From assembly GCF_902713615.1 (NCBI RefSeq), contig NC_052146.1, positions 309,768,335 through 309,832,334 of the forward strand: a stretch of DNA of 64,000 nucleotides. Reading direction: 5' to 3'. The translations under genes and the position numbers were made by a program. The notes beneath the pieces were generated by a model. It did not search any database. It was not told where the DNA came from and saw nothing but the letters and a program-made list of their open reading frames with translations. This DNA comes from Scyliorhinus canicula (lineage: Eukaryota). Shown here one piece after another: positions 7,736 to 52,212 of this stretch; positions within the stretch are counted from its first letter, which is position 1; each line of letters starts with the position of its first letter.

Positions 7736-8161
7736 GGGCAGGATTCCCCGACCCCCCCCCCCCCCCCCCACCCCCCCCAACCCCGCCGAGTCAGAGAATC
7801 GGCAGGGGGGACGGCGTGAATCCCACCCCCGCCGGCTGCCAAATTCTCCGGCACTGGAAATTTGCCGGGGGCGAGAATCGGCCCTCCCGACAATTCCCCG
7901 GCCCGTGATGGGCCAAGTGGCCACCCCTTTGTTGCTGGTCCCACCGGTATAAATTATAATAGCTCCTTACCAGTGGGACCTGGTGGCGCAGGCGACCTCC
8001 GGTGTCCACGGGGTGGGGGGGGGGGGGTAACCCCCCATGCGCATGCGCTGGAATGATGCCAGCACAAGCTGGCGTTCCGCGCATGCGCCAACTCGGGCCG
8101 GCTGGCGTGGCGCCAATCAACTTCCCCGCCGGTCGGCACAGCCGGCCTAGCCCCTGAAGGT
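7736..8161 (+). mobile_element. MITE-like element, left part (right part 18062-18171), split by the LTR element
   Basis: Terminal inverted repeats gggcaggattcccc / gcagaatcccgccc; sequence is continuous across the AGGT TSD. Confidence 0.6.
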
Positions 8162-9123
8162 TGTAGCCACCTAAAATGGACGCTGAGCTGCAAAGTAAGC
8201 CAAGCGCTAAGACTGCAGGGAAAAAGGCAGTTTAGCCAAAACAGCAGTCTGCAAAGAGAGCATTTTGCATTCTGCAAGTAGCAGAAACCAGTTTGGTCTC
8301 AGGTGAGAAGACCTTAGTTCGGTGCAAATGGCAAAACGCTTTGCATACTAATGAGGCAATCAGACCTGAACACCCACACAATAGAAACATTTGACTCTGA
8401 ATGGACACATTTGAACCAAGGCCCAGACATCGAGGCACCAGAAACCTCCAAACAAAAGGGCATAAGAAACGCCCCCCCCATCACGGAGACCCCCTCGCAT
8501 TGGGGAATTCAAACAGTATCGATGAGGAATTGACCCAATAGATAACCAAAGGTTAAAGCCCGCCCCAAAAAGGCATGGAGATTGGGATCCCTATAAAAGA
8601 CAGGGACCTTGTGTTGTCCGGTCTGTTTTGTGCTCCGGCTACCTGTGATCCTGAACTTGACTCCTGACTCCAGCCGTTGAGCACCAGCTGCTGAACCGTG
8701 AGTAATACACGACGCTCGCTACGCGAACCAGCTACCGATAGACCCTGACGACCAGCATACCCTCTGAAGGTGCAGCCCCAAGATCAGAAGGAAGGCCTTG
8801 CTCCCTGACCTTGCCGGTTCCCACTTAGTTAAGTATACTGATCATTTAGTTTAGTCATAGCTTAGTCTCGTAGTGTGTGCATGGGTATTTATTATTTGTC
8901 ATAATAAATACAATTCGTTTAGAACTCACTAAGCGGTGTATCGTCTTTATTACTTTGAACCTGACCTTGAAATACTTGTGACGGTGTCTAGATACGGCAC
9001 CTGGCGACTCCGAGCTAGAAGAATACACATACAGAGCCTAGTAGTGTTAAGCACACGACCTTACGGAGGCGTGTTAATACACTCCAATAAACACGTTTTA
9101 CACCCAAAGTAAAACGTGCAACA
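8162..9123 (+). repeat. 5' LTR
   Basis: tgtagcc..gtgcaaca; TATAAAA 8592-8598, donor GTGAGT 8698-8703, AATAAA 8903-8908. Confidence 0.96.
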
Positions 9124-9442
9124 TTTAGTGGCGACATCCTGCCGGGACACGGTTGTAAGTGGTAACCCCACTCCGTCCAGGACCCTGAAATTTGAATTGG
9201 AACTCCAAAATACAGAGAAAGTAAAAAAATCACAAGTCTTCAAGGTGTTCAAACTAATAAGTGTAATTCGGAAGTGTGTTTAGTGCATGCGTACTAACAG
9301 GGCTGTAAGGTAAAACTGAAAGCTTTTTGTTGCGACAAACTTTCGGTAGTTTTGTGAACGGAACATAGCATAAGCCGTACCCGTTTCGTGAGACACAACC
9401 CCAGCACCCCCTGTTCCAAATTTAAAAAGAGAGTCAGAGAAA

Positions 9443-11197
9443 ATGGCCATGCAGGCAATGGAACGTCTGATGGATCCAGAAAGGTTTGTGGTCGCAGCGA
9501 CCAGTGGTAGCAGAGTAGGTCAGTGTCCCGTGTGGGAGCTGGAACTCCGCAAATACCTACAAGGAAAGGGATGGCCCCTTTGGAAAGAGTTTTGTCTGAA
9601 TGAGGAGACAGGTCCCGGAAGTATTGGCCATACTTGGTGGGAGAACCTCTCTCAAATTCACAAAAAGAATATAGGAAAAGTGCGTAAGCTGATGGCGATT
9701 GTGTCCTGTCTGGCACAGTTGCGAGGCACAGAGGAGGTCGTTAGGACGCTCCGAGCAGAGTTGGAGGAGAGAGACCGAATGGGTAAGGTGGATGTCAGGG
9801 ACATCGAAAAGGAAAACATGGAGCTTAGAGGGAAGTTGGCAGAGAAGGGTAGAGAGGTGGAGGATGCCAAGAGGGCACACCAGTCTTGTCTAGCCCATCT
9901 CAGCAGTTCCCAAACTCAATATGAGAAAGCCTATCAGGACGTGCAGCGTGCCGTTCTGGTAAGAGAACAAGCAGAGAAGCAGGTAGAGGCGTTGCAGAAG
10001 CAATGCTCTGACCTGAAGGCAGCTTTAAGAGCACTCCACGCTGCCAACACAGAACAGAGACAAAGCACAGTAGACCACGCGAAATGCAGAAAACAGATTG
10101 CGGAACTGCAATCTCTGCTTTCGGTGCAAAACGGGTTCCAGAGCACCTTTGGAACGCAGTTAGATGAAGAAAATGCCCCAGATTGTCAAGAGTTGAGCGA
10201 AACTGCGCAGCGATATGTTCAGAGAACATGTGCGCCAGCAGCGCAGCAGAAAAGGCAAGCACCCCAACCCCCCACACACCCTCCAGATCAGATAGTCACC
10301 GCACCCATGAATCCCGTAACCACACAAAGGAAAGCAACCACCGAAGGCGCACCCGATATAACCTACACCACCCCCTTAACGGTAACCCAGCTCAGGGACG
10401 CATGTGAAAAGATCACTCTGTTCCTCCCCACCGCAGACCCCCACCAGTTCTTTGCTAAAGTAAAACAACAGGCGACCATGTACGGCCTGGATGAGAGAGA
10501 GCAGGTTAAGCTCACCGTGCTGAGCTTAGACCAGTCAGTAGTAGCAGCCCTCCCCGACCCACAGAACGTTGGCGGAGGCACCCTTGAGGAAATGCACACC
10601 TCCATTTTAGACGCTATAGGGTACAATCGAGGTGACCCTGTAGAAGGACTGAACAAGTGCCGGCAAAAGAAAACCGAGCACCCCACAGCATTCGCAGGAA
10701 GGCTGTGGATTCATTTTAACGCAGTTTTTGGCGAGTTAAACAGAGCCCATTTAAGCCGCGAAAACATGGTTAAATGGACGCGCACCCTGATTTCACACGC
10801 GACAGAGGCAGGACAGAGCGCTTGCCACAGTTACGACCCCTCAGAAGAGGCCCACAATGAGAAATGGGTCCTGAAAAGGTTGTCCCGCGCTTGGGAGCAA
10901 TCACTTCAGGGCAAAAGTAAGGTTAAATCCCCAGAGGAAGCTCAGGCTGCAGCAGATATTCAGGCAGTGAGAGCGCACCAAAACCCCGCGTGGGTAAATG
11001 AAGGGAAGAGCAGCCCTCCACAGAAGTCGCAGGAATGCTATAACTGTGGACAGTTAGGGCATTGGGCCAAAGAGTGTAATGCACCCCAGAGATCTCAGAG
11101 AGGCCAGCAGACAGGCACTCTGAACCGCAACAAAGCAAAACCCATCCACAATATAGCAATACAGTCAGGACCCACCAATGTGGACGAGACGAACTGA
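9443..11197 (+). CDS. gag: Gag (584 aa): coiled-coil-like region, capsid-like region, CCHC knuckle
   Basis: Long open ORF after 5' LTR; CYNCGQLGHWAKEC = Cx2Cx4Hx4C. Confidence 0.93.
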   Translation: MAMQAMERLMDPERFVVAATSGSRVGQCPVWELELRKYLQGKGWPLWKEFCLNEETGPGSIGHTWWENLSQIHKKNIGKVRKLMAIVSCLAQLRGTEEVVRTLRAELEERDRMGKVDVRDIEKENMELRGKLAEKGREVEDAKRAHQSCLAHLSSSQTQYEKAYQDVQRAVLVREQAEKQVEALQKQCSDLKAALRALHAANTEQRQSTVDHAKCRKQIAELQSLLSVQNGFQSTFGTQLDEENAPDCQELSETAQRYVQRTCAPAAQQKRQAPQPPTHPPDQIVTAPMNPVTTQRKATTEGAPDITYTTPLTVTQLRDACEKITLFLPTADPHQFFAKVKQQATMYGLDEREQVKLTVLSLDQSVVAALPDPQNVGGGTLEEMHTSILDAIGYNRGDPVEGLNKCRQKKTEHPTAFAGRLWIHFNAVFGELNRAHLSRENMVKWTRTLISHATEAGQSACHSYDPSEEAHNEKWVLKRLSRAWEQSLQGKSKVKSPEEAQAAADIQAVRAHQNPAWVNEGKSSPPQKSQECYNCGQLGHWAKECNAPQRSQRGQQTGTLNRNKAKPIHNIAIQSGPTNVDETN

Positions 11198-14100
11198 CGG
11201 TGTTCGGGCTCCCCCACTTGGGTCTGTGACACACTATGGGATCCGTCAGGGAGACCCGTAGTCACGGCAAAAGTAAAAGGGAAGCCCATAGAGTTACTTT
11301 GGGACACAGGAGGGTCCCGCACCACAATAAACTCCACGACCACGGCACAGGCAGACACTTGGCCGACCACATCCACCATCACACTTAGCGGGTTCACAGG
11401 ACACTCGCAGCAGGGACATATCACAGCACCCGTAGCGATCCAGCTAGGGAACATTTCCACAAAACATCCAGTCGTTTTAGTAAATCTTCCCCGGACAGCA
11501 GAACACATCCTGGGGATAGATTTTATGAATGCTCATAGCCTGTCGTTCGACCCAGTGAACCAGTGTGTCTGGCGAATGGCTCGATCGGACAGAGCACCAG
11601 CTACTCTCAAAGTAGGAGAGTACGCTAACAGGATTAGTGCAGTAGGAGAGTACTCCTTTGACCTGACTACACTCCACACCGACAGACAAATAAAGGCACT
11701 TCTAAACAAACACAGGACAGCATTTGCCAGTCACCGTCATGACTGTGGCAGAATGACTGGACCAATCCACGTTACCGGACCGGACCCCCGACCACAGAAA
11801 CAGTATAGATTTCCCCTGGAAGCAGAGGCGGAAATAGAGAAAGTTATAGGAAGCTTATTGGAGCAAGGTGTGCTCAGAACGGTAGCCTCGACCAATAATG
11901 CCCCTATTTGGCCAGTGAGGAAGCCCGATGGATCATGGCGTCTGACCATCGATTATCGGGAACTCAACAAAGTCACCCCCGCAGTAGCCCCAACGATAGC
12001 TACTAGTCCCGAGACCATGCTCAAGCAGGGACTCAACTCCAAATATTTCACGGTATTGGACATTAGTAATGGCTTCTGGTCAATACCATTGGCAAAAGCG
12101 TGCCAGTACAAATTTGCCTTCACTTTCAAATCGCAGCAGTATACGTGGACATGCCTTCCACAAGGATTCCACAACTCCCCCTCCATTTTCCACCGACAGT
12201 TGGCAAGTGGTTTAGAAAAATTTTCCCGCCCCGAATGTCTGGTACAGTATGTAGACGACCTACTACTGCAGACAGACACAAAGGCAGAGCACATTTCGCT
12301 TCTGGCCGAACTCCTGGAACTCTTGACTGAAATTGGATGTAAAGTTAACCCGAGAAAGGCCCAGATTTTGGCAGATAAAGTGATGTATTTGGGTACAGTC
12401 ATCACGCACGGCAAACGCGAGATCGAATTCAAAAGAATTGATTTGATCGTCAAATTGCCCCTTCCCCAGAATGTTTCAGCCCTCCGGTCGTTTTTAGGAC
12501 TGGTTGGCTATTGTCGGAACCACATCGACGGATTCGCGACAAAAGCCGCCCCACTCTCAGACCTCCTTAAGAAAGGAGCCCCCTGGGAATGGCTTCCGCA
12601 GCACACAGAGGCTGTTGAGGAGTTAAAAAGAGCCCTTAGCGCAGCACCCGCGCTGCTAGTCCCAGACCCACTTTCCCCTTTCGCAATCGAGGTAGCGAGC
12701 ACCGATCTGACCCTCTCGGCCGTGTTGCTTCAGGAACGGCACGAGCAGCTAAGACCAGTGGCTTATGCCTCACGACTGTTAGACCCGGTTGAACAAGGAT
12801 TCTCAGCCTGTGAGAGGCACCTCCTTGCTGTCTTCTGGGCAGTACAATATTTCTCTTACATTACCGGACTCAACCCCATTACTATTCTGACCGAACACAC
12901 ACCCACACAGTTACTCCTAGACGGTCGACTGAAGGACGGTTCAGTTAGCCAGATTAGGGCAGCTAGGTGGACACTACTCTTACAAGGACGGGGCATTACA
13001 GTAAAACGGACACGCACACACACATATTTAGCAGACAATCTTCAATACCCCGGACAGCCCCATGACTGTGAAATTGTAGCTCCCCTACATAACACAGGAC
13101 CCTTTATAGCAAAGACACCCCCCAGGAAGATAGGGAATCCAGCACAAGGCACCCCACACGCAGACACGTGTGGACCCCTGAGGATTTACGTGGACGGTTC
13201 ATCCACAGTTTTAAATGGTGAGCGTATCACAGGATGCGGCATCTATGTCGAGGACGCGCAGGGTCGCGCACTCGAAGAAATAGCACTCAAATTGCCAGGT
13301 CACTTAGGCGCGCAGGCAGCAGAGCTCGCGGCCATAGCTTATATAGTGGACCACCCCGATTCTTTCCCCAGCCCAGCAGACATATATTCAGACAGTTTAT
13401 ATGTCTGTAATAGTTTCACAGATTTTCTGCCCCTGTGGAGGACACGAGGTTTTGTCTCCGCAGACGGGAAACCCCTTCCATCAGCCCCTTTACTCCAGCA
13501 CATCTTAGAAAAAGCGAAGGACAGGACCTTCGGCATAATAAAGGTAAGAAGTCACCATAGGTCATCCCCCCCTGGGAATGTAAAGGCCGACGCATTGGCT
13601 AAGGCAGGTTCCAGGCGAGGACACTTATGGACCCCCCCCCCAGCTAGTGCACCAGCTAGCGCCCCTGTGAGCGCAGTCCAAGTCTCACAGACTGACATTA
13701 AAGATCTTGTAGAGGCACAGAAGCAGGATGAGGATCTCAGGGAGATTTTCAAAGGAAACTTTGTGCCACAATACGATAGATTCAAACATGCACTGACCAC
13801 ACATGAGGGTGTGATCATTAAGGACCAGCTTTATGTGGTCCCGAAGCAGGACAGGAATCAGATGATTGCCTTGTTCCATGACGGACACGGGCATCAAGGA
13901 ATTGACACAACTACTAGGCACCTCAGGCAGCTCTGTTGGTGGCCTAATCTAAGGACCGATGTGACACATTATATCGAGAATTGCCTTATTTGCGCTCAGA
14001 ATAACCCGGAGAGGTATTCTAAAAAAGCCCAACTTCGGCATACTCGACCAGTTAACGGCCCCTGGACGAACCTCCAGATCGACTTTATAGGACCATTGCC

Positions 14101-15427
14101 CCCTTGTAGGAATGGCTATAAATACGTTCTGGTGGTGATCGACACTTTTACCAAGTGGGTAGAGGCATTTCCCTCTCGTACGAACACAGCTAAGACAGCT
14201 GCTAAAATTCTGACGCACCACATCTTCACAAGATGGGGTTTACCGCGTAGTATTGATTCGGACCAGGGATCTCATTTTACAGGACGTGTCATGAAGAGCG
14301 TCCTGACAATATTTGGCATAAAACAAAATTTCCACATTGCGTATCATCCACAGTCCAGCGGGATTGTGGAGTGCATGAATCGGACCCTAAAAACAACCCT
14401 TAGGAAAATGGTACAGGAAAACAATTCGACATGGGATTCAGTGCTCCCATTTGCACTCATGTTCATAAGAAACACTGTCTCCACATCCACAGGTTACACA
14501 CCACACAAACTCATGACCGGACGCCCTATGAAAGGTACAGAATTCCTTTTAGGACTGGACATGACTAGCCCCGAAGTAACGGCCCTCACCCATGAAAGAG
14601 CAGTTAAAGACCTAGTTGAGACTGTGAGGTCTGCACAGCTCGCAGCCGCAGTTCGACTAGGCAAACGACGTCAGCAAAGCACTGCGTGCTTTGACAAGAC
14701 TGTTCACCCCACAGAATTCCAGGTTGGGCAACAGGTAATGTTATCTGTTTACAACCCCAGCAGTTTTTTGGCTCCAAAATTTTCCGGCCCCTACTCAATT
14801 GCGGATAAAATTAGCCCCTCTGTGTATAAAATCAAATATCCTAACGGGAAGACTGCGTGGTTTCATATTAACCAGCTTAAAGCATATGGAACACAGTCTA
14901 ACCATGCTCATCATGTACTGCTAGATGCAGCAGAACACTTCACCCCGCCCACTAGAGACACTTTTCCACCATCCCCCTCACAGACCAGTTCATCAATGGA
15001 CTCGCCCACGACTCCGCCCACTGACCACGACAGACCACGCCCCGAAACGCCCACAAGCTGCCGCAGCAGAGACAGCAGGACAGACACTGACTCTGAGGAC
15101 AGCGACAGCACACAGCCATACAGCCCACACTGCACCAACTACGACCCCGACTCCAGTGACCCCATGGAAGTCACTTACCTTAAAAACCCAGAACCACCAC
15201 CCGACCCCGACTACCCCGACAACACACTTGACACAGCACTCTGGCACAGGGACAATTCGTGCAGACTTGTCCGCAACGATGAAAGTGACCCCCGGTCACA
15301 TAATTATAAGATTGCATGCCTGATCCACACAAGGGTGTGGGATCCGGGAGAGCAGGACGACACGGTGTCTGAATCCCGATACGGCAACCCCTTTGTGACC
15401 CTGTTCACAGAGGCAGAGTCAAAGTGA
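11198..15427 (+). CDS. pol: Pro-Pol in frame with gag: protease, RT, degenerate RNase H, second RNase H, integrase
   Basis: LLWDTGGS (Asp codon 11303), LPQGF, YVDD, IEVAST..AYASR, IYVDGSS..AELAAI..YSDS..GNVKADALA, HDGHGH..CLIC, IDFIGP..DSDQG..GIVE, GPY. Confidence 0.96.
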   Translation, partial: RCSGSPTWVCDTLWDPSGRPVVTAKVKGKPIELLWDTGGSRTTINSTTTAQADTWPTTSTITLSGFTGHSQQGHITAPVAIQLGNISTKHPVVLVNLPRTAEHILGIDFMNAHSLSFDPVNQCVWRMARSDRAPATLKVGEYANRISAVGEYSFDLTTLHTDRQIKALLNKHRTAFASHRHDCGRMTGPIHVTGPDPRPQKQYRFPLEAEAEIEKVIGSLLEQGVLRTVASTNNAPIWPVRKPDGSWRLTIDYRELNKVTPAVAPTIATSPETMLKQGLNSKYFTVLDISNGFWSIPLAKACQYKFAFTFKSQQYTWTCLPQGFHNSPSIFHRQLASGLEKFSRPECLVQYVDDLLLQTDTKAEHISLLAELLELLTEIGCKVNPRKAQILADKVMYLGTVITHGKREIEFKRIDLIVKLPLPQNVSALRSFLGLVGYCRNHIDGFATKAAPLSDLLKKGAPWEWLPQHTEAVEELKRALSAAPALLVPDPLSPFAIEVASTDLTLSAVLLQERHEQLRPVAYASRLLDPVEQGFSACERHLLAVFWAVQYFSYITGLNPITILTEHTPTQLLLDGRLKDGSVSQIRAARWTLLLQGRGITVKRTRTHTYLADNLQYPGQPHDCEIVAPLHNTGPFIAKTPPRKIGNPAQGTPHADTCGPLRIYVDGSSTVLNGERITGCGIYVEDAQGRALEEIALKLPGHLGAQAAELAAIAYIVDHPDSFPSPADIYSDSLYVCNSFTDFLPLWRTRGFVSADGKPLPSAPLLQHILEKAKDRTFGIIKVRSHHRSSPPGNVKADALAKAGSRRGHLWTPPPASAPASAPVSAVQVSQTDIKDLVEAQKQDEDLREIFKGNFVPQYDRFKHALTTHEGVIIKDQLYVVPKQDRNQMIALFHDGHGHQGIDTTTRHLRQLCWWPNLRTDVTHYIENCLICAQNNPERYSKKAQLRHTRPVNGPWTNLQIDFIGPLPPCRNGYKYVLVVIDTFTKWVEAFPSRTNTAKTAAKILTHHIFTRWGLPRSIDSDQGSHFTGRVMKSVLTIFGIKQNFHIAYHPQSSGIVECMNRTLKTTLRKMVQENNSTWDSVLPFALMFIRNTVSTSTGYTPHKLMTGRPMKGTEFLLGLDMTSPEVTALTHERAVKDLVETVRSAQLAAAVRLGKRRQQSTACFDKTVHPTEFQVGQQVMLSVYNPSSFLAPKFSGPYSIADKISPSVYKIKYPNGKTAWFHINQLKAYGTQSNHAHHVLLDAAEHFTPPTRDTFPPSPSQTSSSMDSPTTPPTDHDRPRPETPTSCRSRDSRTDTDSEDSDSTQPYSPHCTNYDPDSSDPMEVTYLKNPEPPPDPDYPDNTLDTALWHRDNSCRLVRNDESDPRSHNYKIACLIHTRVWDPGEQDDTVSESRYGNPFVTLFTEAESK

Positions 15428-16382
15428 GGTGTCCAGATGATGTAACATAGGAATCGTTTGAGGGAAGCGATGTCCTTTCTGATGGAACCTGCACGTATGT
15501 TTGTCTATCGTTTTATGTTTGTTTGTCTTTCAGGAATGTAAATGGTTCAGTTGGAGGATGGACATCTTCTTTTCAGCTGAAAAGATTGTGACCACCTCAC
15601 ACACACGTTAGCTTGTCCGCCGATACCTTTGAGAACTTCAGTTCCCAAACCCGTTTGATTGGAGATCTTTTCAAGTTGTAAGGCTTGTGACCGCCTTACA
15701 CACACAATAGTTTATCTGCAGATACCTGTGAGAACTTCAGGTTCCGTCCTCAGTTGGAGCATCTTGGCTCCCTTGTTTTTGTTAGGTGCCCCTCTATTCG
15801 GCGAATAGAGGCTGCAAGTCACGGTAACCACATTCTTACCCGTTTAATCCAGGTTACTCAGGCAGTGGACAAACGGCACTGAGGACCCGCCCTGTCTGAG
15901 AACCAACCTTGGTCAGCCAAGCTCGGGTATGGCACAGCACGCCCTACCCGGGGATCCCATCCAACTCGTACCCGTCGCGGCCCATACGCAACTCATTCGA
16001 ACGTTTCTTTCAAAATTTGTTTTCATTTTAGTTAGGTAGCCCTTTGGCCGCCATCCCACATGCTATTTACATCCGGGAACATTCGGATGGTAAACTAGCA
16101 AAGCCTGCGAGACGGCTCGCAGGAGAAGGATTGTTAGGTGTATTCTGGTCTTCAAATTCGCTTTTGAAAAAAAAAAAATGAGGGGAGTCACAGGGTGTGA
16201 CTTGGCCAGTCATTTTTAAAGGGTCAATTGGAATTTAAAAGACAGATGCACTAACAGGTAAAGATCTTAAACTGTGTATTGACAGATACTGTGCTTGATC
16301 CCATAGCTTTCGAAGGACGAGACAGGGATCGAAGCAAGGATTGTCCATACAGGAGGAAGAAAGAAGGAAGAACAAGTTGAAG

Positions 16383-16727
16383 ATGATGGAAGCTCACCTA
16401 TTACTATTGAATGTTATATTTGTTTGTGTACAAACCAGCCATGTTTCCCCCACAACCCCCGCCGTTAATGTTTCCCTCACAGCAAGTCCCCCGTGCTCAG
16501 CTCTGATCAGCGAGGTTCAGACCTGGTGCACGAAGTTTATGACATGGTACTCCATGTCATACGTGATCGAATCACTGCTAGTGATTGCGATCATCTGTAT
16601 CATCATCCAAACCCTCAGGTTGAGGAAGTGGAAGAGGAGAGCCTCCCGCTCCTGCCCCTCAACCATCTATGGGGTACAATCCCCTATCTTCGGGTTTCAC
16701 CAATCCCCCCAGCCCCTCACTGATTAA
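16383..16727 (+). CDS. Small single-pass membrane protein (114 aa) in the env position of the LTR element
   Basis: ATG ATG in good Kozak context; hydrophobic N-terminus, NVS sequon, TM YVIESLLVIAIICIIIQTL, basic RLRKWKRR; acceptor at 16284-16285 with no ATG in between; AATAAA 16739-16744. Confidence 0.72.
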   Translation: MMEAHLLLLNVIFVCVQTSHVSPTTPAVNVSLTASPPCSALISEVQTWCTKFMTWYSMSYVIESLLVIAIICIIIQTLRLRKWKRRASRSCPSTIYGVQSPIFGFHQSPQPLTD

Positions 16728-17099
16728 AGCACTCTGTAAATAAAATTCTACCATGTATTATATTGTCCTACACTCGACTGCCGAGTTAGGAAGTGTGATG
16801 TTGTGGTGTGAATGGTTAAGGTTTTTTAGAGTGTGATAAATGTTTAAGTTAAGGATAAGGATAGTGTGATAGGTAGAGGTTCCCGGTTTTTGTAATGCAT
16901 GTCCCTTTGACATAGGGCCAAGTAGAATGTTAGTTAAATTTTTTTTTCTTCTTCCCATAGTTTAGGATAGAGTAGCCCAGGAACTGGCAAGAGGTCAGGG
17001 AACACAGGGAACACACAGAGAAGGCACCCAGAAGCACTCAGCACGACCTGCATGGGTGATCCTTCACAATTTTCAATTGTGAGGATCACAAGGAGGGAA

Positions 17100-18061
17100 T
17101 GTAGCCACCTAAAATGGACGCTGAGCTGCAAAGTAAGCCAAGCGCTAAGACTGCAGGGAAAAAGGCAGTTTAGCCAAAACAGCAGTCTGCAAAGAGAGCA
17201 TTTTGCATTCTGCAAGTAGCAGAAACCAGTTTGGGCTCAGGTGAGAAGACCTTAGTTAGGTGCAAATGGCAAAACGCTTTGCATACTAATGAGGCAATCA
17301 GACCTGAACACCCACACAATAGAAACATTTGACTCTGAATGGACACATTTGAACCAAGGCCCAGACATCGAGGCACCAGAAACCTCCAAACAAAAGGGCA
17401 TAAGAAACGCCGCCCCCATCACGGAGACCCCCTCGCATTGGGGAATTCAAACAGTATCGATGAGGAATTGATCCAATAGATAACCAAAGGTTAAAGCCCG
17501 CCCCAAAAAGGCACGGACATTGGGATCCCTATAAAAGACAGGGACCTCGTGTTGTCCGGTCTGTTTTGTGCTCCGGCTACCTGTGATCCTGAACTTGACT
17601 CCTGACTCCAGCCGTTGAGCACCAGCCGCTGAACCGTGAGTAATACACGACGCTCGCTACGCGAACCAGCTACCGATAGACCCTGACGACCAGCATACCC
17701 TCTGAAGGTGCAGCCCCAAGATCAGAAGGAAGGCCTTGCTCCCTGACCTTGCCGGTTCCCACTTAGTTAAGTATACTGATCGTTTAGTTTAGTCATAGCT
17801 TAGTCTCGTAGTGTGTGCATGGGTATTTATTATTTGTCATAATAAATACAATTCGTTTAGAACTCACTAATCGGTGTATCGTCTTTATTACTTTGAACCT
17901 GACCTTGAAATACTTGTGACGGTGTCTAGATACGGCACCTGGCGACTCCGAGCTAGAAGAATACACATACAGAGCCTAGTAGTGTTAAGCACACGACCTT
18001 ACGGAGGCGTGTTAATACACTCCAATAAACGCGTTTTACACCCAAAGTAAAACGTGCAACA
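17100..18061 (+). repeat. 3' LTR
   Basis: Same length as 5' LTR; about 11 substitutions by manual comparison. Confidence 0.96.
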
Positions 18062-18829
18062 AGGTGCAGAGGATTCCGCACCTTTGGGGCGGCTCGACGC
18101 CGGAGTGGTTCCCGCCACTCCTTCCCGTCAGGGTTGATTCCCGTCCCGCTGATTCCCGCAGAATCCCGCCCCACTTATTTCGGGAATTGTGGGAGGAAAC
18201 CAGAGGACCCGGAGGAAATCCACGCAGACACGATGAGAAACATGCAGACTCCGCACTGACAGTGACTCACGCCGGGAATCGAAACTGGGACCCGAGATCA
18301 GTGAAGCAACAGTGCCAACCACTGCGCTGCAGTGCAACCCATTAGCCCCATTTTCCCCTTTAAAATAAATTGTAATTCTTTGAATTTAAATATTCCTGAA
18401 ATGAAATGAAAATGAAAAGCGCTTATTGTCACAAGTAGGCTTCAATGAAGTTACTGTGAAAGCCCCTTCTCGCCACATTCTGGCACCTGTTCGGGGAGGC
18501 TGGTACAGGAATTGTTGCTGGCCTGCCCTGGTCTGCTTTCAAAGCCAGCTATTAAGCCCAGAGTGCTAAACCAGCCTGTGTGTGTTTATCTTGGTGTGTA
18601 CAAATTGAAAAACTTCAACAATGAGTCACTTTTCACAAGATTCAATCCTAAACAATAAAGCGACTGATTTTTTATTGACTCACACAAATATATTTTGCTT
18701 TATTCAAATGAATCAGCTCTTCGGTTCAATCTTAGAATCTGGTTCTCTCCTTTTCAAACAGAACATTCTCTTTAAACACTTTGGAACCTTCAGACTGGTG
18801 TTTAACTTGTTGATATTTTTCTCTGAAAG

Positions 18830-48385: not shown

Positions 48386-50102
48386 CCAATACGTCTGCGC
48401 CACGCACCAGTCAGCAAACCACGGGGTCGCCGATGTTATTTTTTGCAGCCAAGACACCCCCACCAACGGTGCCCGGCCCACGCTGCCCTTTGTAAGGCTT
48501 GCGGCAAGAAGGGGCACTTTGCCGCGGTGTGCCAGGCCTGTCCAGCCGGAACTATCAACCCCACCCCCCTCGTTATGGACAATGGGCGCCGCCATCTTCA
48601 CCTCCCCGGACCAAGCGTGGCCAGTGGGCGCCGCCATCTTCCCCTCCGAGCAACACGTGCGGCCCATGGGCACTGCCAGCGTTCCAGGATCGGGGCCCCC
48701 CGGGCTCCCCATCATCTGACACCAGCGACGACCGCCTACGACTCGCCTCAGTGACCATCGAGCAGCCTCGTCCGCACAAGCTGGTCACCGCATCGACCAG
48801 CGTTAAAGTCAACGGGCACGTGACCTCTTGCCTGCTGGACTCCAGGAGCACGGAGAGCTTCATCCACCCGGTTACGGTAAGGAGCTTCTCCCTCGCGGTA
48901 CACCCCGCCAATCAAAGAATCCCCCTGGCCTCCAGATCCCATTCCGTGGCGATCCGCAGTTACTGTACGGTCACACTCAAGGTCCAGGGCGTAGAATTCA
49001 GCGGCTTCCGTCTCTACATCCTCCCTAACCTCTACGCTGCCCTACTGCGAGGCCTGGAGTTCCAGTGCAACCTCCAGAGCCTAACCCTGAAATTCGGCAG
49101 GCCCCTACCACCCCTCACAGTGTGCGGCCTCGCGACCCTAAAGGTCGATCCACGTTCCCTCTTCGCATATCTAACCTCAGATTGCAAACCCGTTGCCACT
49201 TGGAGCAGATGGTACAGCACCCAGGACAGGATCTTCATCAGGTCCGAGGTCCAGCGGCTGCTTTGGGAAGGTATCATCTAGGCCAGCAACAGCCCCTGGA
49301 GAGCCCAAGTGGTAGTAGTTAAAACTGGGGAGAAACACAGAATGGTCATGGACTACAGCCAGACCATCAATCGGTACACGCAGCTCGACGCGTACCCCCT
49401 CCCTCGCTATGTCTGATATGGTCAATCAGATTGCACAGTACCGGGTCTTCTCAACTGTAGATCTCAAATCCACCTACCACCAGCTCCCCATTTGGAAATT
49501 GGACCGTCCATACACTGCCTTTGAGGCAGATGGCCGCCTCTATCACTTCCTCAGGGTTCCCTTCGGCGTCACCAACGGGGTCTCAGTCTTCCAAAGGGAG
49601 ATGGACCGAATGGTCGACAGTACGGTTTGCAGGCCACCTTCCTATACCGAGACAACATCACCATCTGCGGCCATGATCAGCAGGGCCACAATGCCAACCT
49701 TGCCAAATTTCTCCACACCGCCACTCTCCTCACCTACTACAAGGAGAAGTGCGTGTTTAGTGCGACCCGCTTAGCCATACTCGGCTATGTGGTCCAGAAC
49801 GGAGTTCTGGGGCCCGATCCCGACCGCATGCGCCCCCTCATGGAGCTCCCCATCCCCCACCGACTCAAGGCCCTCAAACGCTGCCTGGAGGTCTTTTCGT
49901 ACTACGCTCAGTGAGTCCCAAACTATCCGGACAAGACCCGCCCACTCATGCAGTCCACCCATTTTCCCCTGATGGCCGAGACACAACGGGCCTTCGCCCG
50001 TATCAGAGCCGGTATTGCCAAGGCCAGGATGCACGCAGTAAACGAGACACTGCCCTTTCAAGTAGAGTGCGACGCATCAGACGTCGCCGTGGCCGCCACC
50101 GT

Positions 50103-50340
50103 CAATCAGGCAGGCAGACCCTGCCCTGGCCGCCACCCTCAATCAGGCAGGCAGACCCTGCCCTGGCCGCCACCCTCAATCAGGCAGGCAGACCCTGCCC
50201 TGGCCGCCACCCTCAATCAGGCAGGCAGACCCTGCCCTGGCCGCCACCCTCAATCAGGCAGGCAGACCCTGCCCTGGCCGCCACCGTCAATCAGGCAGGC
50301 AGACCCTGCCCTGGCCGCCACCCTCAATCAGGCAGGTAGA
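50103..50340. repeat. 37-bp tandem repeat inside the Gypsy RNase H
   Basis: (caatcaggcaggcagaccctgccctggccgccaccct) x6 + partial. Confidence 0.93.
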
Positions 50341-52212
50341 CCCGTGGCATTCTTTTCCCACACCCTTCATGCCTCAGAAATTCGACACTCATCCATCAAG
50401 AAAGAGGCCCAAGCTATCATTGAAGCTGTGCGGCATTGGAGGCATTACCTGGCTGGCAGGAGATTCACTCTCCTCACTGACCAACGGTTGGTAGCCTTCA
50501 TGTTCAATAACACACAGCAAGGCAAGATCAAGAATGATAAGATCTTGAGGTGGAGTATTGAGCTCGCCACCTACAATTACGAGATTTTGTATCGCCCCGG
50601 TGAGCTCAATGAGCCCCCAGACGCCCTATCCCGAGGTACATGTGCCAGCGCACAAGTAGACCGACTCCTGACCCTGCACGACAGCCTTTGTCACTCGGGA
50701 GTCACATGGTTGGACAATATCATAAAGGCCCGCAATCTGCCCTACCCCCTCGAGGAAGTACGGACAATTACCAGGGACTGCCATGTCTGTGCGGAGTGCA
50801 AGCCGCAATTCTACAGGCCGGACCGTGCGTACCTGGTGAAGGCCTCCCGCCCCATTGAACGCCTGAGCATGGATTTCAAAGGGCCCCTCCCCTCCACCAA
50901 CCGTAACACATATTTTCTCAGTGTGGTCGATGAGTACTCCAGATTCCCCTTCGCCATCCCATGCCCCGATATGATGTCTGCCATTGTCATCAAAGCCCTC
51001 AACACAATCTTCGCTCTGTTCGGTTTCCCGGCCTACATCCACAGTGACAGGGGATCCTCCTTTATGAGTGATGAGCTGTGTCAGTTCCTGCTCAGCGGGG
51101 GTATCGCCTCCAGCAGGACGACCAGCTACAACCCCCGGGGAAACGGACAGGTAGAGAGGGAGAACGGGACGGTATGGAGGGCCATCCAAGTGGCCCTACA
51201 GTCCAGGAACCTCCCAGCCTCCCGCTGGCAGGAGGTCCTCCCTGATGCACGGCACTCCATTCGGTCACTACTCTGCACCGTCACTAACAACACACCCCAT
51301 GAACGTCTTTTTCCTTCCCCAGGAAGTCCACATCCGGGGTGTCGCTCCAGACTTGGCTTGCAGTTCCAGGAACCGTCTTGCTCCGTAGGCACGTCCGACT
51401 CCACAAGGCGGACCCGTTGGTGGAAAGGGTACAGTTGCTCAATGCAAACCCCCAGTATGCCTACGTGGCGTACCCCGACGGCCGGCAGGATACTGTCTGC
51501 CTCAGGGACCTGGCACCAGCAGGTTCAACACCCCCCCACCCCCCCAGCCCTGCACCAATCTACCCTCCCCCAGCCCTCCCAGCAGCAACCCCTCCCAGGG
51601 CCATCCGTAGTCCCCTGCCCCACGCCCGAGGATGAAGAAGATTTTGGCACGCTCCCGGAGACACCGGACATCGGATCAGCATCGCATCTCCGACACCACT
51701 ACGTCGCTCACAGCGGCATATCAAGGCCCCGGACCGGTTAAACCTCTAACTGGTCCACTGAACTTCAAAAGACATTTTTTTTTCTCCCTCTGTCAAAGAT
51801 TATAAATGTAAATGTAAAAAGAAAACCATTTGTTGTACATCGTTCTCCACCACCCCCACCGGACTCAATTTTAACAGGGGGTGAATGTGGTAAACGACTG
51901 TTACACTTCTATCAGGTGATGTATGGCAGGATCTGTACTACAGGTTCATTAGCAGTCCCTGCCTGCTGGCTCCGCCCAGTAGGCGGAGTATAAATATGTG
52001 TGTCCTCCATGCTGCAGCCGTTTCGCCAGCTGCTGTGGGAGGCCACACATCTTAGAACAATAAAGCCTCAGTTGTACCCAACTCAAGTCTTTGTGCAATT
52101 GATCGAGCATTAAGGAATTTATTTTACTATATGTCGAAGGAGGAAACTTTGATCATGTGGTGAATGTTGATCACCAGACATATCCCTGTTTGTTGCAGTG
52201 AGAGATATTTAC

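Follow-up and report, generated by a model that had tools for sequence, protein, structure and literature searches.

The window analysed here is a stretch of 64,000 nucleotides of the catshark Scyliorhinus canicula (contig NC_052146.1). The subject of this report is an endogenous retrovirus (ERV) within it in which gag and pol are intact and env is missing, and that carries in the env position a gene for a membrane protein of 114 amino acids (Table 1). The two long terminal repeats (LTRs) of the provirus differ by 11 mismatches over 962 nt (98.86% identity), and the element is flanked by a 4-bp target-site duplication, AGGT (8158–8161 and 18062–18065). The insertion would be about 26 million years old if the rate of 2.2 × 10−10 per site per year holds, which is the shark rate assumed, and called uncertain, in PMC4422223.

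The env position was scanned for open reading frames (ORFs) and protein domains. Between the pol stop (15427) and position 16298 no stop-to-stop ORF on the plus strand was longer than 63 codons, and the 114-residue ORF is the sole sizeable gene downstream of pol. The two non-coding stretches that flank it were translated with X at stops and searched against Pfam; all six forward frames gave 0 matches at E ≤ 1. An earlier note on this DNA had described a small gene standing where env should be, and for this copy the ORF and Pfam scans bear it out. The same note had considered that the gene could be homologous to a fragment of a deleted env, and no env likeness was found. The spacer upstream of the gene contains a tandem duplication (15568–15645 and 15666–15745; 81% identical, period 98 nt), which is possibly an enhancer or export element.

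Table 1. Features of the provirus and of its small membrane protein gene (positions in the window).
Feature	Position	Strand	Basis or remarks
Complete LTR element, provirus of ~9.9 kb	8162–18061	+	Intact gag and pol
5' LTR, 962 nt, TG...CA	8162–9123	+	TATA box 8592; splice donor after 8697; likely poly(A) signal 8903
Major splice donor ACC/GTGAGT, exon end 8697	8695–8703	+	Consensus match and position; use presumed
Primer-binding site	9129–9148	+	Sequence, 5 nt past 5' LTR
gag, 584 aa, one CCHC knuckle, TGA stop	9443–11197	+	ORF and Pfam
Putative gag–pol readthrough signal, TGA-CGG and 3' stem-loop	11195–11290	+	z −3.05; 2/200 shuffles as good
pol, 1409 open codons, frame of gag	11198–15427	+	ORF and Pfam
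Non-coding spacer in env position	15428–16306	+	No env remnant
Long predicted stem-loop, 127 nt, pairing CACTAAC (16249–16255)	16131–16257	+	z −5.10, 0/200 shuffles
Candidate acceptors, exon start 16286 or 16307	16284–16307	+	CAG/ at 16286; homologue joins
Small membrane protein gene, 114 aa	16383–16727	+	ORF and homologue conservation
Three predicted RNA hairpins over the most conserved small-gene codons	16487–16636	+	Lowest z among 120 element windows
Candidate internal poly(A) signal: ATTAAA 16723, AATAAA 16739, G/T-rich tract	16723–16830	+	Motif only
Hairpin (17056–17090), then polypurine tract	17056–17099	+	z −4.17, 60 shuffles
3' LTR	17100–18061	+	AATAAA at 17841 and 18024

Architecture of the small membrane protein

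The ORF of 114 residues, its signal-like N-terminus, its NVS sequon, its single transmembrane (TM) segment and its polybasic RLRKWKRR motif were all confirmed where the earlier note had placed them. The N-terminus is hydrophobic (Kyte–Doolittle 9-mer peak of 3.04 at residue 6) and residues ~1–20 are a predicted signal peptide, which would leave a mature ectodomain of about 40 residues. This begins with a stalk rich in Ser, Thr and Pro that bears the sequon (Asn29) and Cys38, and continues as a Trp-rich amphipathic helix (48–59) that carries Cys49. The TM segment (~60–78; 19-mer peak 2.45) contains Glu63 and Cys72, and its core (64–75) is purely aliphatic except for the cysteine. RLRKWKRR (79–86) opens a basic patch (79–89) and is followed by a tail with the sequence Y-x-x-Q-S-P-I-F; immunoreceptor tyrosine-based activation and inhibition motifs (ITAM and ITIM) and YxN motifs are absent from the tail sequence.

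The same layout recurs in the relatives described below, and on these predicted features the family is one of type I membrane glycoproteins with a signal peptide. A hydrophobic N-terminal core is found in 10/10 sequences (peak Kyte–Doolittle value 1.8–3.7), followed in the relatives by small-residue sites that resemble cleavage sites. The stalk has 27–36 residues, of which 40–56% are Ser, Thr or Pro, with a single N-glycan site. The hydrophobic moment of the 11 residues from Trp48 is 0.42–0.62 in the nine rows that span them, values to be read without a shuffled control, and six to eight Lys or Arg residues lie in the 15 positions past the TM segment in all nine spanning rows.

Structure prediction with AlphaFold2 gave two helices with a predicted TM-score of 0.32 and a mean predicted local distance difference test score of 65. 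Foldseek returned 0 matches for it in BFVD or the PDB at E ≤ 0.001, a result that is uninformative for so weak a model. A homodimer prediction for residues 40–92 scored 0.03 and gives no evidence either way. None of the nine rows searched against Pfam reached the cut-off; the look-alikes below it were TMEM156 (4/9 rows, best E 0.0013), FAM174-like proteins and adenovirus E3. The ESM Atlas held no match to the small protein at or above 0.9 and gave, at the level of leads only, TMEM213, TMIE and DAP10 (0.83–0.86) and influenza M2 (rank 20, 0.83). The nine-row profile matched 0 PDB chains at E ≤ 10, and an earlier PDB profile search had matched two antibody light chains through the signal peptide (E 0.8–1.5). 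By these searches the small gene represents a new protein family.

Homologues and selection

A word-index search for homologues of near length (62–200 aa) found none among nine candidates. A full scan of 1.84 billion representatives gave four matches (45–65%), and a five-row profile run against proteins of 203–2000 aa (8000 candidates scored) gave 11 matches at ten loci, nine matches being from S. torazame and two from S. canicula, with no other organism represented. Among the sequences searched, homologues of the small gene thus appear confined to catsharks. They occur only inside longer chimeric models in which a host part is followed by the small-gene exon; the loci are SUGCT, KIAA1958, B3GAT1-like, CFAP36, HEPACAM2-like, PTGER3, one galectin-domain gene and three uncharacterised genes. 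In the HEPACAM2-like model the viral TM segment and basic patch follow the immunoglobulin domains, at the point where a host TM segment would lie.

The alignment consisted of this copy and nine others (n = 10), P0013 being dropped as an isoform of P0012 and P0011 as partial; P0011–P0018 are S. torazame RefSeq models. The tree was built from nine rows, with P0018 left out. Pairwise identity of the ten sequences is 27–82%, and they fall into three groups with ~35–55% identity between groups, two of the three clades being starred. This copy has the longest end branch (0.65), mostly from the signal peptide. Averaged over all pairs, identity is highest in the Trp-rich helix and the basic patch (76% each), intermediate in the TM segment (59%) and the tail (53%), and lowest in the stalk (43%) and the signal peptide (36%).

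Several patterns indicate constraint on the protein. The sequon is kept in 10/10 sequences as four different triplets, whereas neutral drift to a like identity keeps it in 16–44%, and the N-terminus stays hydrophobic even at ~10% identity. Both ectodomain cysteines that the earlier note had pointed out are present in this copy, but only Cys49 is conserved (10/10) and Cys38 is not; the TM cysteine is kept in 9/9 rows, Glu63 in 8/9 and the tail motif Y-x-x-[QR]-[SP]-P-[IM]-F in all seven rows with a tail. Identity over residues 47–89 exceeds that over residues 1–46 by 0.38–0.52 in 8/8 comparisons, against ~0 ± 0.10 under neutrality and a neutral maximum of 0.41 in 20,000 runs; these comparisons, made at the protein level and not as dN/dS, share this copy and a boundary chosen after looking, and are not independent tests. 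The 108 differences in residues 47–89 have a mean BLOSUM62 score of +0.81, compared with −0.54 to −0.63 for neutral change. Judged from these sequences, the small protein is under purifying selection at the protein level, and the regional identity and the conservative changes speak against the neutral evolution that the earlier note had allowed for.

Splicing, polyadenylation and RNA structure

The major splice donor lies ~100 nt past the TATA box, within what would be the R region of the 5' LTR, and is repeated in the 3' LTR; there is no ATG in 8600–8697. A splice from 8697 to 16286 that makes ATG 16383 the first start codon had been proposed for this gene. The donor motif and the first AUG stand, the latter being shared by five AG sites in 16258–16353 with 16286 among them, but the joins of the homologues favour 16307 over 16286. 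Homologous gene models join ~48–76 nt upstream of the ATG and none joins at −97 (16286). The closest informative homologue, P0009, joins ~24 codons before Met, which corresponds to 16307 in the window; in four loci the join falls 22 codons before Met, at one common residue, and in three more at ~16–17 codons. Site 16286 has the branch-point-like CACTAAC 32 nt upstream. The spacer also holds acceptor-like sites at 15411, 15534, 15853 and 16032, with pyrimidine tracts longer than those of 16286 and 16307; these sites give only ORFs of 1–36 codons.

The joins in the models presumably coincide with host exon ends. RefSeq models named 'isoform X' are usually based on alignments of transcripts; the same AG in similar copies could also come from the gene predictor. 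That host-gene models splice into the exon supports a working acceptor, which is probably real and located 48–76 nt upstream of the ATG, and it speaks against the lack of expression that the earlier note had named as a possible objection. Upstream of the ATG the relatives are frameshifted with respect to the window, which is what a 5' untranslated region would show. Through such an acceptor, host genes (among them SUGCT, PTGER3 and CFAP36) are diverted into chimeric models that end in the TM exon.

An ATTAAA at the stop codon, and an AATAAA with a GT-rich tract ahead of the 3' LTR, had also been reported and are present as a candidate poly(A) site. The tract downstream of AATAAA 16739 is the richest in G+T (67%) among the eight AATAAA of the element. 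In 2000 shuffles of 16720–17099, a region picked after the motif had been seen, 0.8% placed AATAAA within the first 40 nt and none (0/2000) placed both hexamers there. Coupled to the acceptor, this internal site would yield a short mRNA that lacks the 3' LTR and would spare most unspliced RNA.

The element has exactly two copies of the motif ACTAACAGG, at 9293 in the leader before gag and at 16250 before the small gene, and both are followed by donor-like GTAA and AAACTG. A further, short splice that joins 8697 to the leader would take out both upstream ATGs before gag (8881 and 9287).

The stem-loop at 16131–16257, which pairs the branch-point-like sequence, may weaken the acceptor and so preserve unspliced genome. 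Within the gene, 16487–16636 has a folding energy of −59.3 kcal/mol, compared with −33.6 ± 4.3 kcal/mol for synonymous recodings, none of 300 being as good. Its three hairpins are near-perfect and include a perfect 10-bp stem at 16538–16561, where this copy has Met at residue 58 and its relatives have Leu. In snakehead retrovirus (SnRV) the sequence of the 3'ORF is reported to matter in cis and its protein to be dispensable (PMC12193657), and by analogy 16487–16636 may serve both RNA and protein roles.

Classification of the host retrovirus

By Pfam, Pol has the order protease, reverse transcriptase (RT), tether (a Ty3-like RNase H remnant; RT_RNaseH_2, 465–562), second RNase H (RNase_H, 662–805), integrase, SH3 and tail. 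The earlier note had drawn a parallel with env-less insect Gypsy elements; the RT and the RNase H layout here are SnRV-like. On the compared sequences the host element is an SnRV-like retrovirus, neither Gypsy nor lokiretrovirus. In the N-terminal part of RT, ~80/138 positions (~58%) match SnRV and ~57/135 (~42%) match Loki-Pma, counted by eye against supplement rows of PMC7947760 as a hand count and not a tree. When RT–RNase H was searched against the PDB, foamy virus and murine leukaemia virus matched at E ~1e-70 to 1e-67 and Ty3 at 1e-38.

SnRV shares the tether and the second RNase H between RT and integrase. Its Gag is described as unmyristoylated and coiled-coil with one zinc finger (PMC2717909), its pol as produced via stop readthrough (PMC13517186) and the virus as complex, with spliced accessory ORFs of 52–205 aa (PMC12193657). 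The shark Gag likewise has no myristoylation motif (no MG start) and a single zinc knuckle, pol lies in frame behind a stop at which we infer readthrough, and a small 3' gene is presumably spliced. Residues ~95–230 of Gag look helical and heptad-like by inspection, with Pfam coiled-coil families matching below threshold only. The shark element differs from SnRV in having no env, in its UGA (UAG in SnRV) readthrough codon and in its 3' gene, whose product is a membrane protein with a signal peptide; the 3'ORF described for SnRV has acidic, Cys-rich and basic regions. The primer-binding site resembles what we take to be a tRNA-Arg site, as in SnRV. Among 8000 scored candidates the only relatives of Gag were four S. 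torazame models (71–79% identical).

SnRV-like ERVs are reported from the elephant shark as CmiERV lineage I (PMC4422223, PMC4977317); unlike the present element, CmiERVs were defined as env-bearing (PMC4422223). A lokiretrovirus was the first suspicion and was dropped, the RT being less Loki-like and no F-like Env being found. Lokiretroviruses share the dual RNase H but have a paramyxovirus-F-like Env (PMC7947760), and in their screen, which included S. torazame, the chondrichthyan row seen listed 0 (PMC7947760). Odin retrotransposons are likewise env-less with dual RNase H, but are hosted by sea anemones. ERV-Spuma.0-Sca (PMC10699275) is probably another catshark family, with an 866-nt LTR, a 2.26-kb gag and an annotated 1.3-kb env; three short motifs of the shark element were absent from its spreadsheet, the long cells of which are cut (PMC10699275).

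Other features of the element and the window were noted. The Pol tail past the integrase SH3 is unusual, with ~170 residues rich in Pro, Ser, Thr and acidic residues (window about 14915–15427), and a Thr/Pro-rich ORF of 132 aa that overlaps it (14925–15323) has no Pfam match. An Rfam scan of 8000–18200 found nothing real (single match, E 0.54) and an ARAGORN search found no tRNA. Elsewhere, the window contains an ORF of 565 aa for an RT of the long interspersed element type (248–1945) and a Gypsy-type RNase H–integrase fragment of 597 aa (49948–51741) broken by a 37-nt tandem repeat. Much of the remainder consists of repeat copies resembling short interspersed elements and of satellites with 24-, 59-, 16- and 15-nt units.

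Function of the small protein

Where an intact provirus without env keeps a gene under selection at the place of env, the simplest role for that gene is in moving between cells. Our preferred reading, at a probability of about 0.4, is a minimal Env substitute, which would take capsids to the plasma membrane and help them pass from cell to cell. The env slot, the env-type splicing, the open gag and pol and the few differences between the LTRs (11/962) all speak for it, and a purely intracellular retrotransposon would have little use for a surface glycoprotein.

An env-type spliced mRNA, joined from the LTR donor at 8697 to 16307 or 16286 and probably with its own poly(A) end, would encode the protein. 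Its anatomy suggests that the signal peptide is cleaved, that the ectodomain of ~40 residues is glycosylated and that the protein reaches the plasma membrane, where the unpaired Cys49 may link two chains. By analogy, the basic patch and the Tyr-Pro-Phe tail could gather capsids of non-myristoylated Gag, or factors of the actin cortex, and the membrane-proximal helix, with its Trp, Phe and Tyr residues, could together with the TM segment promote close apposition to, or transient fusion with, a neighbouring cell. Capsids would then pass between touching cells, for example from soma to oocyte, without a free enveloped particle. Such action would be like that of Drosophila sORF2 or of the membrane-proximal stem of Env, without the protein being a member of the FAST (fusion-associated small transmembrane) family. 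Shark follicle-cell processes are a possible soma-to-oocyte route; a literature search for them returned no paper.

Several points weigh against an Env substitute. None of the ten sequences has a myristoylation motif and there is no ectodomain cysteine pair. With 40–56% Ser, Thr and Pro and a fixed sequon, the distal ectodomain looks like a spacer or shield and not like a fusion peptide, and the acidic residue at the start of the TM segment (8/9) suits helix–helix binding to a host protein. Of the ten homologous loci, four are disrupted or incomplete (the tail is missing from P0009 and P0017, P0018 ends within the helix and P0011 has no in-frame signal peptide), and protein databases favour open copies. 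If relatives carry env, the gene would be an accessory and env merely lost in this copy. No likeness to any fusogen in sequence or fold was found, by searches to which FAST-type proteins are invisible.

We are doubtful that the element belongs to an env-less vertebrate retrovirus lineage spreading by its own minimal fusogen of ~95 mature residues, of independent evolutionary origin and with a signal peptide. If this were true, the protein would be a third structural solution to membrane fusion by small proteins beside FAST and sORF2, and the first minimal fusogen in a vertebrate ERV.

Nearly as likely as an Env substitute is an accessory membrane protein of a complex retrovirus, similar to Vpu, adenovirus E3 or an immune adaptor, with env lost separately. 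The conserved TM face and its acidic residue would then bind a host membrane protein and re-route it or dampen its signalling. Such a role fits the conservation of the signal peptide, of the stalk with its glycan site, of the one juxtamembrane Cys and of the charge in the TM segment; the weak library matches are to small type I proteins of hosts or viruses, and the TM spacing presumably recalls FcR-gamma and CD3-zeta. SnRV, as a complex virus with spliced accessory ORFs, offers a parallel (PMC12193657). An env-less element confined to its cell would, however, gain little from a surface immune modulator, no library match passed a curated cut-off, the nine-row profile found no PDB chain and the tail lacks ITAM, ITIM and YxN. 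The library and fold searches do not separate the Env substitute from its rivals.

A shrunken Env, reduced by an ancient loss of most of its ectodomain to signal peptide, stem, TM segment and tail and kept for the targeting or budding of unmyristoylated Gag, is improbable. The position, the splicing pattern and the type I layout are those of env, the Gag has no MG start and the Trp-rich membrane-proximal helix resembles the stems of Env proteins. Neither the four matches among 1.84 billion representatives nor the 11 profile matches (8000 scored) included a long env-like protein, the sequence has no gamma-type Env motifs, and the reported SnRV Env tail has 136 residues (PMC12193657), compared with ~36 here. 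Homology to an Env TM subunit was not found in protein, PDB and Pfam searches, which lacked a direct comparison with Env of the SnRV clade.

We give very little weight to a viroporin, in which the TM helix would form an oligomeric channel. The protein is small and single-pass, its membrane span has polar residues at the N-terminal end, and there are a Cys for a disulfide and the influenza M2 lead in the Atlas, but its TM core is aliphatic bar the Cys and has no gate of the His/Trp type, and a pore needs no conserved glycosylated stalk. Least probable of all is a gene that acts mainly as a cis-acting RNA element for export, packaging or splicing control, with the protein secondary: 16487–16636 is the most structured of the 120 windows, beyond its synonymous recodings, and the SnRV 3'ORF is a precedent, but RNA constraint does not predict conservative substitutions, a sequon spelled four ways, an N-terminus hydrophobic at ~10% identity or frameshifts located upstream of the ATG, and these patterns count against an RNA-only role, although both functions may overlap.

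Significance and comparison with known systems

Env is taken as the sole retroviral route into cells, and env-less ERVs are taken as confined to the cell. Transfer from soma to germline through a small membrane protein, with no Env, has been shown in flies, and the account of 10.1101/2025.03.14.642691 extends it to elements of insects, to nackednaviruses and to picornaviruses, but not as far as vertebrate ERVs. With a small membrane gene under selection at the env position of an intact vertebrate retrovirus, such passage can be tested in vertebrates using one gene of 114 codons. ERV screens that require an env homologue, as reported in PMC4422223 and PMC10435555, would miss such elements. Even as an accessory, the gene would give a new protein family from a retroviral clade about which little is known. 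The literature searched, which left most subscription journals and Repbase uncovered, describes neither the small gene nor a shark ERV that is SnRV-like, lacks env and has a small TM gene.

The earlier note had likened the protein to the FAST proteins of reoviruses, and membership of that family is not borne out. The shark protein shares with FAST p10, p14 and p15 a length within ~100–200 aa (60–200 aa when sORF2 is included), a single TM segment, a short N-terminal ectodomain, a membrane-proximal amphipathic segment, a polybasic juxtamembrane patch and a disordered tail. According to PMC7830690 (see also PMC12945298), p14 and p15 need myristate and p10 a cystine loop, and FAST TM segments are reverse signal anchors. 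Here an MG start is found in 0/10 sequences and one ectodomain Cys is conserved, which leaves neither an N-myristoylation motif nor a cystine noose, and the reverse signal anchor is replaced by a predicted signal peptide, followed by a sequon in a glycosylated Ser/Thr/Pro stalk. With these hallmarks missing the protein falls outside the FAST family, although its mode of action may be similar.

The env-less Drosophila MDG1 elements are reported to infect the oocyte using a small TM protein, sORF2, for which at least three Lys or Arg within 15 residues past the TM segment serve as the polybasic criterion (10.1101/2025.03.14.642691); the shark family has six to eight at these positions. Both systems combine an env-less LTR element with a small single-pass N-out protein that has an amphipathic ectodomain motif and a polybasic patch. 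MDG1 belongs to the Metaviridae, whereas the shark element is Retroviridae-like and has a vertebrate host; no homology between the proteins was detected, and in place of the myristoylation motif of sORF2 (absent in two of six, as reported) there are a signal peptide and a sequon.

The nearest vertebrate precedent is the crocodilian CrocERV31 (PMC4299795), likewise a vertebrate ERV outside classes I and II in which env was replaced by a membrane-protein gene under purifying selection. Its nectin3 is described as a captured host mRNA with clear homology, whereas no host homologue was found for the shark gene, and the shark provirus, unlike CrocERV31, keeps gag–pol intact.

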